Source: Thermoplasmatota archaeon | Lineage (GTDB): Archaea; Thermoplasmatota; Penumbrarchaeia; Penumbrarchaeales; Penumbrarchaeaceae | DNA: 64,000 nucleotides | Assembly: GCA_029762535.1 (NCBI GenBank) | Contig: JARVGK010000001.1 | Coordinates: 32,368 to 96,367, forward strand | Direction of reading: 5' to 3' | Part shown: positions 34,972-36,657 of the stretch, piece after piece | Layout: each line of letters starts with the position of its first letter | How positions within the stretch are numbered: position 1 is the stretch's first letter | Notes under the pieces: model-generated | Told to the model about the DNA's origin: nothing | Seen by the model: only the letters and a program-made list of their open reading frames with translations | Database searches by the model: none | Made by a program: the position numbers and the translations under genes

Positions 34972-36657
34972 TCATGACCCGTCCTCCTCGATCCTGAGCC
35001 TGACCCTGTTGCCCAGTCGATCATATGCCGCTATGGAATCCTCAGAGAACGGATATCCGATGATGAGATTGATCCCGGGGAACCTCGAGAACATACTTAG
35101 GTCCGCCTTGGAGGGCCGGGCCGATCCCGACGGGTGTGAGTGGACGACCCCTTCGCCCTGCACGGCTCTCTGGGACAGCCTATCGAAAAGGGAGAACATG
35201 AAAGATGCCCTTCCCCCGGCGCCTTCGAGCACGGGTTCGATATGGGAGATATGGGGGGCCCCCCTTAGCATCGCCCCGAACTCGTTGGGGAAGGCGTCCT
35301 TGGCCCTTCTGACGATCTCCTCCACGGCCGATCTGTCAATGGAATAATCCATCTCATCTTCGAAAAGCTCTGATGTGTCCGGGTCGGTCCTGAGCCATTC
35401 ATGCTCGGATACGGCCTCCTTGAGGATCAGATAGGCTTCGGGATAGTTCTTGACGGGTCTGCGTGCGATGAGGTCCAGGAGAGCCCTCTTTCCCTTCGAG
35501 CGGTTACCGGAGCGCAGATGGACCATCACAGCAGTGGAGAGCAGAACGGATTCGATCTCATCGTCAGGGAATTTTTTCAGGTGCTTCAAGGCCTCCCGTA
35601 TGACGTTCGCTCCTGAGCGATGGTCATCGGCCCTGGCCATCCAGAGGGCCGAACGAGCCCTTGCTCGAATATAAGAGTCGGGGTCGTCACGGGATAGGCC
35701 TTCGGACACTTCGTCCATCATATGGGCGTTCCTGACCATATCCTGCTTCGCCTCCGCCGTGCCACTCTCCGCCATTGCGCATCTGAGCTCGTGCATATCG
35801 ACCTTGGCCCTGCGACCTTCAGTGTCGTTGTCGATCCTCGCTGAGGATTCGATGGCTCGCTCCAACAGGCCGATCCCTTCCTCTTCCGATCCGGCCGTCC
35901 TCGATAGTTCTTCTAACGCCAGGACCTCCAGATAAGGAAACTCCATCTCGATAGCCCTCTCCAGGGCGCCGCCCATGATCCTCCGGGCGGAGGCGGGATC
36001 CCCAGAATCGAGGCGCATTTGCGAATGGACCAGATCACATCGGATGAGATGGTATGCTCCGACCCCCTCATCGAAAGATGAGAGCTCCTCCGCAGCTTCG
36101 TAAGCGGTGTCCAGGTATCTGAACATCCCATCCCTCATGCCTCTTGCCAGCATCCTTGATTCCACATGGTCGGACCTCTCGACCAGCAATCTAGAGGCCA
36201 GCAAATGGGATTCAACGATCAGGAGGGGGTTTTGGCCACCTCTCCTTCTTGAATTAGGGGCCATCCTTTCAGAGAGGCCAAGGGCGGATACCACCGGGCC
36301 CATATCGAGGGGTATCGAATGGTCGAGGGCCGCGTTCCCGGCCCTTGCCAGGGCCAATCTCACGACCGGTCCGTTAAGATCGCCCGAAGATGCGATCCTC
36401 TCGAGCGGTTCGATGCATCTACGATACCTGCCTCTGAGGACTAGGACGTCGTGAAGACGGAACAGGGACCCCGGGGAGAGCCCTTCTCTATCGCCTGATA
36501 ACATTCTTCTGAGGAAGCCCCTCGCCCCTTCATCGTTGAGAAAGTAGGTCTCCTCTTCCGTTAGGAGGGACAGACGTCCATGGCGCACATCCATGCAGCC
36601 TCTCTCGATCTCGGCCAAATGCCCCTCGAAGCCTCCTGGCATTCGGTCACCTCGCAA
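34972..36657 (-). CDS. TPR-like helical protein with C-terminal JAMM/MPN+ metalloprotease domain
   Basis: Exact JAMM motif E...HSHPSGSARPSKAD (HxHx7Sx2D); long alpha-helical TPR-like N-terminal ~430 aa. Confidence 0.75.
   Translation of the reverse strand: MRGDRMPGGFEGHLAEIERGCMDVRHGRLSLLTEEETYFLNDEGARGFLRRMLSGDREGLSPGSLFRLHDVLVLRGRYRRCIEPLERIASSGDLNGPVVRLALARAGNAALDHSIPLDMGPVVSALGLSERMAPNSRRRGGQNPLLIVESHLLASRLLVERSDHVESRMLARGMRDGMFRYLDTAYEAAEELSSFDEGVGAYHLIRCDLVHSQMRLDSGDPASARRIMGGALERAIEMEFPYLEVLALEELSRTAGSEEEGIGLLERAIESSARIDNDTEGRRAKVDMHELRCAMAESGTAEAKQDMVRNAHMMDEVSEGLSRDDPDSYIRARARSALWMARADDHRSGANVIREALKHLKKFPDDEIESVLLSTAVMVHLRSGNRSKGKRALLDLIARRPVKNYPEAYLILKEAVSEHEWLRTDPDTSELFEDEMDYSIDRSAVEEIVRRAKDAFPNEFGAMLRGAPHISHIEPVLEGAGGRASFMFSLFDRLSQRAVQGEGVVHSHPSGSARPSKADLSMFSRFPGINLIIGYPFSEDSIAAYDRLGNRVRLRIEEDGS

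Follow-up and report, generated by a model that had tools for sequence, protein, structure and literature searches.

A TPR-like superhelix joined to an AfJAMM-type JAMM domain in proteins of uncultured archaea

The window, i.e. the whole stretch of DNA analysed here, comprises 64,000 nucleotides from a Thermoplasmatota archaeon (assembly GCA_029762535.1, contig JARVGK010000001.1, positions 32,368 to 96,367). Its minus strand carries a gene, referred to here as TPR-JAMM, whose predicted product consists of a TPR-like superhelix, a conserved linker and a C-terminal JAMM/MPN+ domain. The maximal open reading frame (ORF), 34972..36657, codes for 561 aa and reaches a TTG at 36657. The ATG at 36642 is the likelier start, because it is preceded by GAGGTGA (36647-36653), within which the stop codon of the upstream gene lies, and because both the N-termini of the homologues and an NCBI entry agree with it. 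That entry (P0001), 100% identical and 556 aa long, is deposited as 'MAG: Mov34/MPN/PAD-1 family protein [Candidatus Thermoplasmatota archaeon]', MAG standing for metagenome-assembled genome; residues are numbered here according to the 556-aa protein. The interpretation of 34972-36657 given in the initial annotation, which was made from the sequence alone, is supported. The features of the gene and of its surroundings are collected in Table 1.

The initial annotation had placed an exact JAMM motif and an upstream glutamate in the C-terminal ~120 aa. The bare pattern H.H.{7}S..D is weak evidence, since its single match in the six-frame translation of the window compares with 0.28 expected from mononucleotide shuffles, and the identity of the domain is settled by homology, i.e. 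by the Prok-JAB profile, the phmmer match to AfJAMM and the family profile. Pfam Prok-JAB (PF14464) matches residues 443-531 with 40.8 bits against a cut-off of 25, which upholds the MPN assignment, and phmmer aligns residues 438-558 with AfJAMM (AF2198; 1R5X, 1OI0) at E 1.4e-16, with all the signature residues paired. A profile of the domain (A3) matches AfJAMM over its full length (E 5.6e-37, 129.7 bits), as compared with E 4e-3 and 20 bits for PfJAMM1. In the phmmer alignment HSHPSGSARPSKAD pairs with HSHPSPSCRPSEED of AfJAMM, and Glu454, the first residue of EFGAMLRG (454-461), pairs with the glutamate of 'PDEFIALL'. In JAMM proteins this upstream glutamate is a hydrogen-bond partner of the zinc-bound water (PMC300881). 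Thus the motif, the glutamate and the ~120-aa extent given in the initial annotation all hold. The signature residues of HSHPSGSARPSKAD are invariant across all relatives, and Glu454 is invariant in alignments A1, A4 and A5, so that the signature E…H(S/T)Hx7Sx2D is complete (E454, H501, S502, H503, S511, D514). The predicted structure has the α/β fold of MPN domains, which begins with the first β-strand at residue 432.

The structure of AfJAMM was the first JAMM structure to be solved. AfJAMM of Archaeoglobus fulgidus (AF2198; PDB 1OI0, 1R5X) is a single-domain protein of 124 aa, from which the window protein differs by ~430 additional N-terminal residues (TPR and linker) and by the clade-specific segment 462-497. 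The domain is assigned to the AfJAMM type, separate from the HvJAMM1 desampylase type: orthology with JAMM1 was rejected (NCBIfam NF041370 gives 19.1 bits for the full protein and 23.8 for the domain against a cut-off of 130), as was a RadC-like JAB (PF04002, 16.5 bits against 22.1, in the motif region only). The desampylases HvJAMM1 and PfJAMM1 (NF041370; PDB 5LD9, 5LDA), distant in sequence, work alone and have no TPR. AfJAMM clusters with HvJAMM2, and both are inactive as purified proteins (Fu et al. 2016, PMC4895103), according to a paper that mentions no TPR fused to HvJAMM2. The domain is of AfJAMM size, and no clear Ins-1 or Ins-2, as in Rpn11 and CSN5, is discerned. Segment 462-497 is unlike the matching segment of minimal JAMMs; although it is among the best-conserved stretches of the protein, pLDDT is below 50 at residues 472-495 in both structural models described below. 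It is possibly a flexible loop at the Ins-1 position, where it might gate access of the substrate.

Two AlphaFold2 models, based on alignments of 8 and 21 sequences, have a mean pLDDT of 80 and 82 and a pTM of 0.78 and 0.82, respectively. In both, residues 1-430 are wholly helical, with at least 20 helices and no strand before residue 432, as expected from the ~430-aa helical region of the initial annotation, and confidence is very high from ~140 to 400. The paired antiparallel helices are modelled as a right-handed superhelix, and the N-terminal region is best described as a predicted TPR superhelix of the peptide-receptor kind. Its best-conserved part is the linker (mean column conservation 0.72). 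Distant relatives pass the TPR_12 cut-off of 30.1 bits, namely P0022 with 63.1, P0045 with 51.8 and P0056 with 52.8. Among the fold matches are peptide-binding TPR receptors with 8-15% sequence identity (Rap/NprR/PlcR/AimR, LGN/Pins, APC/C Cdc27/Cut9/APC5, APPBP2, and Pex5), none of which is fused to a JAMM domain, unlike the window protein. A lid PCI subunit and the AAA+ adaptor α-SNAP/Sec17 also match; they rank below the generic TPR receptors. A scaffold of the PCI or lid type was rejected, as no PCI winged helix follows the repeats in the AlphaFold2 model and the top fold matches are generic TPR proteins. The protein thus differs from Rpn11 and CSN5, of the lid and the COP9 signalosome, in that a plain superhelix takes the place of a PCI scaffold.

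The TPR-JAMM fusion is found in one clade of proteins of uncultured archaea, 443-708 aa in length, whose named members all come from Thermoplasmatota MAGs. A word-indexed search returned eight full-length relatives with 37-66% identity, each annotated just as Prok-JAB, while the JAMM domain alone as a query gave only five fragments, and with the mixed alignment A4 the distant TPR-JAB members were missed amid generic TPR, CHAT, and kinase proteins. When a profile of the 426 N-terminal residues was searched against 1.84 billion representative proteins, 10 had E<1e-30, i.e. nine long members and a 196-aa fragment; therefore the immediate family is small. The weaker matches that covered only positions ~320-409 proved to be combinations of TPR with Prok-JAB, 443-693 aa long, in nine of the ten proteins scanned. 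These distant members were detected through the linker segment alone; the remaining matches were generic TPR proteins. The distant members, when aligned with the window protein, share with it the linker motif PVKQYP..Y..LKE.V....WLRED.E..ELF directly before the JAMM domain. In this alignment Glu161 of the repeats is invariant, as are E454, H501, H503, S511, and D514, and Ser162 is conserved in the window's clade. Invariant residues before the JAMM domain also include D113, S162, H198, N272, W334, R337, R381, and K385.

Among GTDB species genomes, a scan gave 21 full-length copies (37-42% best-segment identity) and two truncated at contig ends, every one of them in a Thermoplasmatota MAG, that of Thermoplasmatales archaeon ex4484_6 among them. 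Six further loci matched the JAMM part only and code for minimal proteins of 120-159 aa; their hosts are other Thermoplasmata, a Cuniculiplasmataceae archaeon, a Micrarchaeota MAG, and an unclassified archaeal MAG. As these are the nearest unfused relatives, the protein is indeed larger than the minimal archaeal JAMMs, as had been claimed, and departs from their single-domain architecture (~120-160 aa). A neighbour-joining tree built from 66 JAMM domains, without support values, places all the long TPR-fused proteins in one clade and all the minimal ones outside it, a pattern that fits one fusion event. Within the window's clade identity falls to 27-58% in the N-terminal domain and is 67-91% in the JAMM domain; since both align without disruption, both halves are under purifying selection. 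A 319-aa protein, P0017, is a variant of the type found in the sister lineage L048 (cf. L048:3065-4522). Two internal segments are missing from it, one of them taking in the whole HSHPSG…D active-site stretch; a pseudogene, a strain variant or an assembly artefact are possible explanations.

Table 1. Coordinates of TPR-JAMM, its parts and the associated genes (positions in the window unless a locus is named)
Feature	Position	Strand	Remarks
TPR-JAMM coding sequence	34972..36642	minus	556 aa plus stop; from the ORF list and start context
Poorly conserved N-terminal segment	36475..36642	minus	residues 1-56; mean column conservation 0.36; pLDDT <50 at 39-53
TPR-like superhelix	35503..36474	minus	residues ~57-380; clearest repeats 139-380
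Conserved linker	35353..35502	minus	residues 381-430; R..gK..L......PVK(N/Q).P..Y..LKEAV....WLR.D..T.ELF
JAMM/MPN+ domain, AfJAMM type	34975..35352	minus	residues 431-556
Glu454 codon (E of PNEFGAML)	35281..35283	minus	upstream catalytic glutamate of the JAMM signature
Clade-specific segment	35152..35259	minus	residues 462-497 (…HIEPvlEGA..R.sFmFSlfdRlsQR.V.GE); conservation 0.80
HSHPSGSARPSKAD (H501, H503, S511, D514)	35101..35142	minus	residues 501-514; zinc ligands and oxyanion-hole serine of the JAMM motif
Stand-alone DUF2240 protein	36647..37120	minus	157 aa; Pfam PF09999 1.2e-21; stop 4 nt before the JAMM ATG
Divergent HisA/HisF-like TIM-barrel	37117..37857	minus	246 aa; Pfam His_biosynth 7.6e-11; 4-nt overlap with the DUF2240 start
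PRC-barrel protein	37861..38130	minus	80-89 aa; Pfam PRC 2.9e-13; clade-specific neighbour
Cdc48/VCP AAA+ ATPase	38127..40352	minus	TIGR01243 1024.8 bits vs cut-off 802.65; first of five genes
NAD kinase–minimal JAMM loci	L029:7196-8360, L031:7190-8369, L032:937-2126, L033:7124-8369, L054:6196-7354, L057:1180-2360

TPR-JAMM is the last of five co-oriented genes, following those for Cdc48, the PRC-barrel protein, the HisA-like barrel and DUF2240, and consecutive genes are separated by, or overlap by, just a few bases; downstream, a polyprenyl synthase gene runs towards it. The gene order recurs in the loci of the window's clade, from both GTDB genomes and metagenomes, wherever the contig extends far enough. 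DUF2240 lies directly upstream of TPR-JAMM in every full-length clade locus with flanking sequence, and in L048 as well. With 27.5 bits against the HisA equivalog cut-off of 285, the HisA-like barrel is, judged by sequence, too divergent for HisA. The C-terminal tail of Cdc48 reads …KKEK.DKG(L/I)xYYG in 15 of the 16 clade loci compared (L001-L024 equivalents) and in the window, one YYS and one SYG being the variants, and its …YYG end resembles the HbYX motif. That motif, as Barthelme and Sauer reportedly found in 2012, docks archaeal Cdc48 on 20S. The adjacency of the genes is nevertheless weak evidence, because the whole region is syntenic across the genomes of the clade; linkage to Cdc48 is a clade-specific context, and the ATPase is an unproven partner.

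Two side observations concern these neighbours. DUF2240 is 'with very rare exceptions' the N-terminal helical bundle of archaeal Rpa1, where it acts as a protein-contact module (bioRxiv 10.1101/2022.07.20.500673), while here it forms a separate gene. Directly upstream of cdc48, and throughout the clade, there are genes for a J-domain-only protein (196 aa) and for a 214-aa protein without a Pfam, NCBIfam or PADLOC match, which overlap by 20 nt (40390-41605, minus strand).

The context changes in more distant relatives. The sister lineage L048, whose 485-aa TPR-JAMM has a JAMM domain 52% identical to that of the window protein, keeps the order HisA-like–DUF2240–TPR-JAMM. No Cdc48 or PRC match is present in the 1.9 kb upstream of its HisA-like gene (L048:1-1880), a stretch containing no ORF above 115 aa. 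In P0022 and P0131 TPR-JAMM ends a string of genes for a GHMP kinase, a SIS protein, and a HAD phosphatase (L037:3707-7363, L059:5806-9581), while in P0020 and P0025, a subclade of 443-444 aa, it follows a gene for a DUF835 protein of ~770-790 aa on both contigs (L036:2937-6696, L062:940-4693). The only neighbour noted for P0031 is a divergently transcribed PRC gene, and P0045 adjoins HicAB and an integrase. No neighbour is universal among the TPR-JAMM loci examined, and linkage to Cdc48 as a general trait was rejected, being confined to the window's clade and missing in L048 and in five other subclade contexts. The enzymes encoded next to P0022 and P0131 resemble those of a heptose pathway, and their string overlaps TPR-JAMM by 4 nt in L037. 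As regards the minimal AfJAMM-type gene, the NAD kinase gene immediately precedes it at six loci of other Thermoplasmata (Table 1), with overlapping frames in L029, L031, L032, and L033 and 34-51% identity of the NAD kinases across the loci. We know of no published explanation of this pairing.

It appears moderately probable that the window protein is an active zinc-dependent (iso)peptidase of the AfJAMM type, in which the groove of the fused TPR provides substrate or partner recognition, the role foreseen for this region in the initial annotation. The superhelix of ~370 residues with its conserved ~50-residue linker would be a built-in version of the partner that type-2 JAMMs may need. For JAMM2 of Haloferax a requirement for partner proteins was considered probable by analogy with Rpn11, and what these partners are is a question raised by the authors themselves (Fu et al. 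2016, PMC4895103). In the mechanism we infer, which extends to zinc binding, catalysis, peptide binding by the TPR part and the identity of the substrate, the concave groove would bind an extended peptide, belonging either to an adaptor or, as its tail or degron, to a substrate, and thereby keep the target beside the JAMM site. There, zinc would be held by H501, H503, and D514, E454 would activate the water molecule, and S511 would stabilise the tetrahedral intermediate; the bond cut would be the amide that follows a ubiquitin-like (SAMP-type) modifier at its C-terminus, or a similar C-terminal tail. The indirect likeness to HvJAMM2, through AfJAMM, extends to the unfoldase, as HvJAMM2 is genetically tied to Cdc48c and the gene of the window's clade lies beside a cdc48.

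Several points weigh against the peptidase reading. No AfJAMM-type protein has yet been shown active (PMC4895103, PMC300881); in the case of AfJAMM itself a zinc site was described together with negative activity assays (Ambroggio et al. 2003, PMC300881). The type-2 (HvJAMM2) assignment was made through similarity to AfJAMM and the clustering stated in PMC4895103. The window protein matches no Pfam TPR family at E<=1, and because of this the name 'TPR-like' rests on the fold and on the relatives: these two bear out the label used in the initial annotation, a Pfam match of the protein itself does not. The neighbours vary by subclade and are often metabolic enzymes and not proteolysis genes. Finally, the proposed check for a fused or adjacent ubiquitin-like gene came out negative: the fused part is TPR, and no gene for a ubiquitin-like protein (C-terminal GG) or an E1 was found near the locus, though not every ORF of the 64-kb window was profile-scanned. 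ThiS, MoaD, ubiquitin and ThiF families are absent from the Pfam assignments of the neighbours, and three ORFs below 150 aa in the window end in GG, none of them beside the locus. A 101-aa ORF ending in …LGGA (14994-15299) was rejected as a candidate, since it codes for a CxxCxxCC zinc/iron-chelating protein and not for a β-grasp fold.

The least unlikely of the alternatives takes the protein for a streamlined desampylase analogous to the lid: coupled to the Cdc48·20S proteasome, the TPR part would dock the JAMM domain on the co-encoded Cdc48, perhaps together with DUF2240 and the PRC-barrel protein, and SAMP tags would be removed during threading, as by Rpn11 on 26S. The packing and conserved order of the five genes speak in its favour, as do the HbYX-resembling tail of Cdc48, the lid PCI subunit and α-SNAP/Sec17 among the fold matches, and the fact that jamm2, ubaA, pan2, and cdc48c are all needed in Haloferax for the SAMP2-stimulated degradation of TBP2 (PMC4895103). 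Yet the adjacency to cdc48 is limited to one clade, whose synteny takes in an unrelated tRNA synthetase and surface proteins, the Cdc48 and PRC matches are missing from the 1.9 kb examined in L048, and other subclades adjoin DUF835, GHMP/SIS/HAD enzymes or HicAB. The lack of a winged helix, hence of a PCI domain, and the low rank of the PCI and SNAP matches argue in the same direction. In comparison with the lid and the COP9 signalosome, no MPN- partner is seen, and the link to an unfoldase is a clade-specific gene adjacency only. That TPR-JAMM and DUF2240, perhaps with the PRC-barrel and HisA-like proteins, make up a minimal archaeal 'lid' on Cdc48·20S which strips ubiquitin-like tags during threading is quite improbable. 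If the lid-like reading were true, the protein would be a one-polypeptide precursor or analogue of the scaffold-plus-Rpn11 of the eukaryotic 26S, and this would disclose the partner requirement that has long been sought for type-2 JAMMs.

Unlikely as well is a role outside ubiquitin-like conjugation, in which the protease would act on another amide (a protein tail, an adduct of a cofactor or carrier protein, or a small-molecule amide) connected with the co-transcribed sugar-phosphate or nucleotide enzymes, with the TPR binding the enzyme or carrier. The overlap or adjacency of the minimal genes with the 3' end of the NAD kinase gene at six loci, the pairing with the HisA-like barrel in both the window's clade and L048, and the position of the P0022/P0131 gene at the end of its metabolic string with a 4-nt overlap fit such a role. 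A precedent also exists, as bacterial JAB proteins are established in cofactor pathways (Mec+/CysO, QbsD). Moreover, AfJAMM does not cleave ubiquitin derivatives (PMC300881). Against it, the neighbours are heterogeneous and point to no single common pathway, no ThiS/MoaD-like carrier protein is encoded next to the gene, and the genetics of Haloferax links JAMM2 to SAMP-dependent proteolysis (PMC4895103). The inactivity of the AfJAMM-type proteins assayed so far would also suit a catalytically dead MPN scaffold, comparable with Rpn8 and CSN6, serving assembly through its TPR and MPN surfaces only. This is very improbable, given that E…HxHx7Sx2D is invariant across proteins whose N-terminal domains share as little as 27-30% identity. 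Inactive MPN domains characteristically lose signature residues. A JAB component of an anti-phage or conflict system, like CBASS Cap3 or other TPR-JAB defence proteins, is hardly credible: P0045 has an integrase and a HicAB pair as neighbours and distant members have weak PADLOC JAB and TPR matches, but the window protein scores 16.3 bits with PADLOC JAB, with no significant stretch, its neighbours have no match, and the neighbourhood is of a stable housekeeping kind in all 21 full-length loci of GTDB species representatives.

As to what was known before, public databases already contained the protein, labelled generically as an MPN protein, and the family of its catalytic domain is a textbook one. 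Nothing relevant to TPR-JAMM fusions in archaea was found in the literature searched, in which the TPR-linker-JAMM architecture, its single-clade distribution and its conserved partners are likewise missing. Kept since ancient times, the JAMM–TPR fusion suggests, as a 'Rosetta-stone' hint, that type-2 JAMMs act via a helical-repeat partner, and the candidates to which it points are the TPR domain, DUF2240, the HisA-like barrel, and Cdc48. The fusion is useful chiefly because it makes the puzzling dependence of AfJAMM/HvJAMM2-type enzymes on partners accessible to experiment. Should the fused form prove active, it would provide the first substrate and mechanism for a JAMM of this type; otherwise it is a correctly recognised, ordinary domain fusion in an uncultured lineage.

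Three other regions of the window deserve mention. The gene for the 101-aa CxxCxxCC protein overlaps that for a ThiI-type PP-loop ATPase of 220 aa (14339-15299, minus strand). Between the Cdc48 cluster and the cysteinyl-tRNA synthetase gene there is a plus-strand gene for a 130-aa RVT_3 (RNase H-like) protein (42204-42596), whose position is kept in L001 and L003. Four very large plus-strand ORFs, coding for 1046-1978 aa, lie at 26061-29201, 30323-33496, 44129-47338, and 47539-53475, and the CARDB and PKD domains in the syntenic genes of L001 and L003 suggest that their products are surface or secreted proteins.

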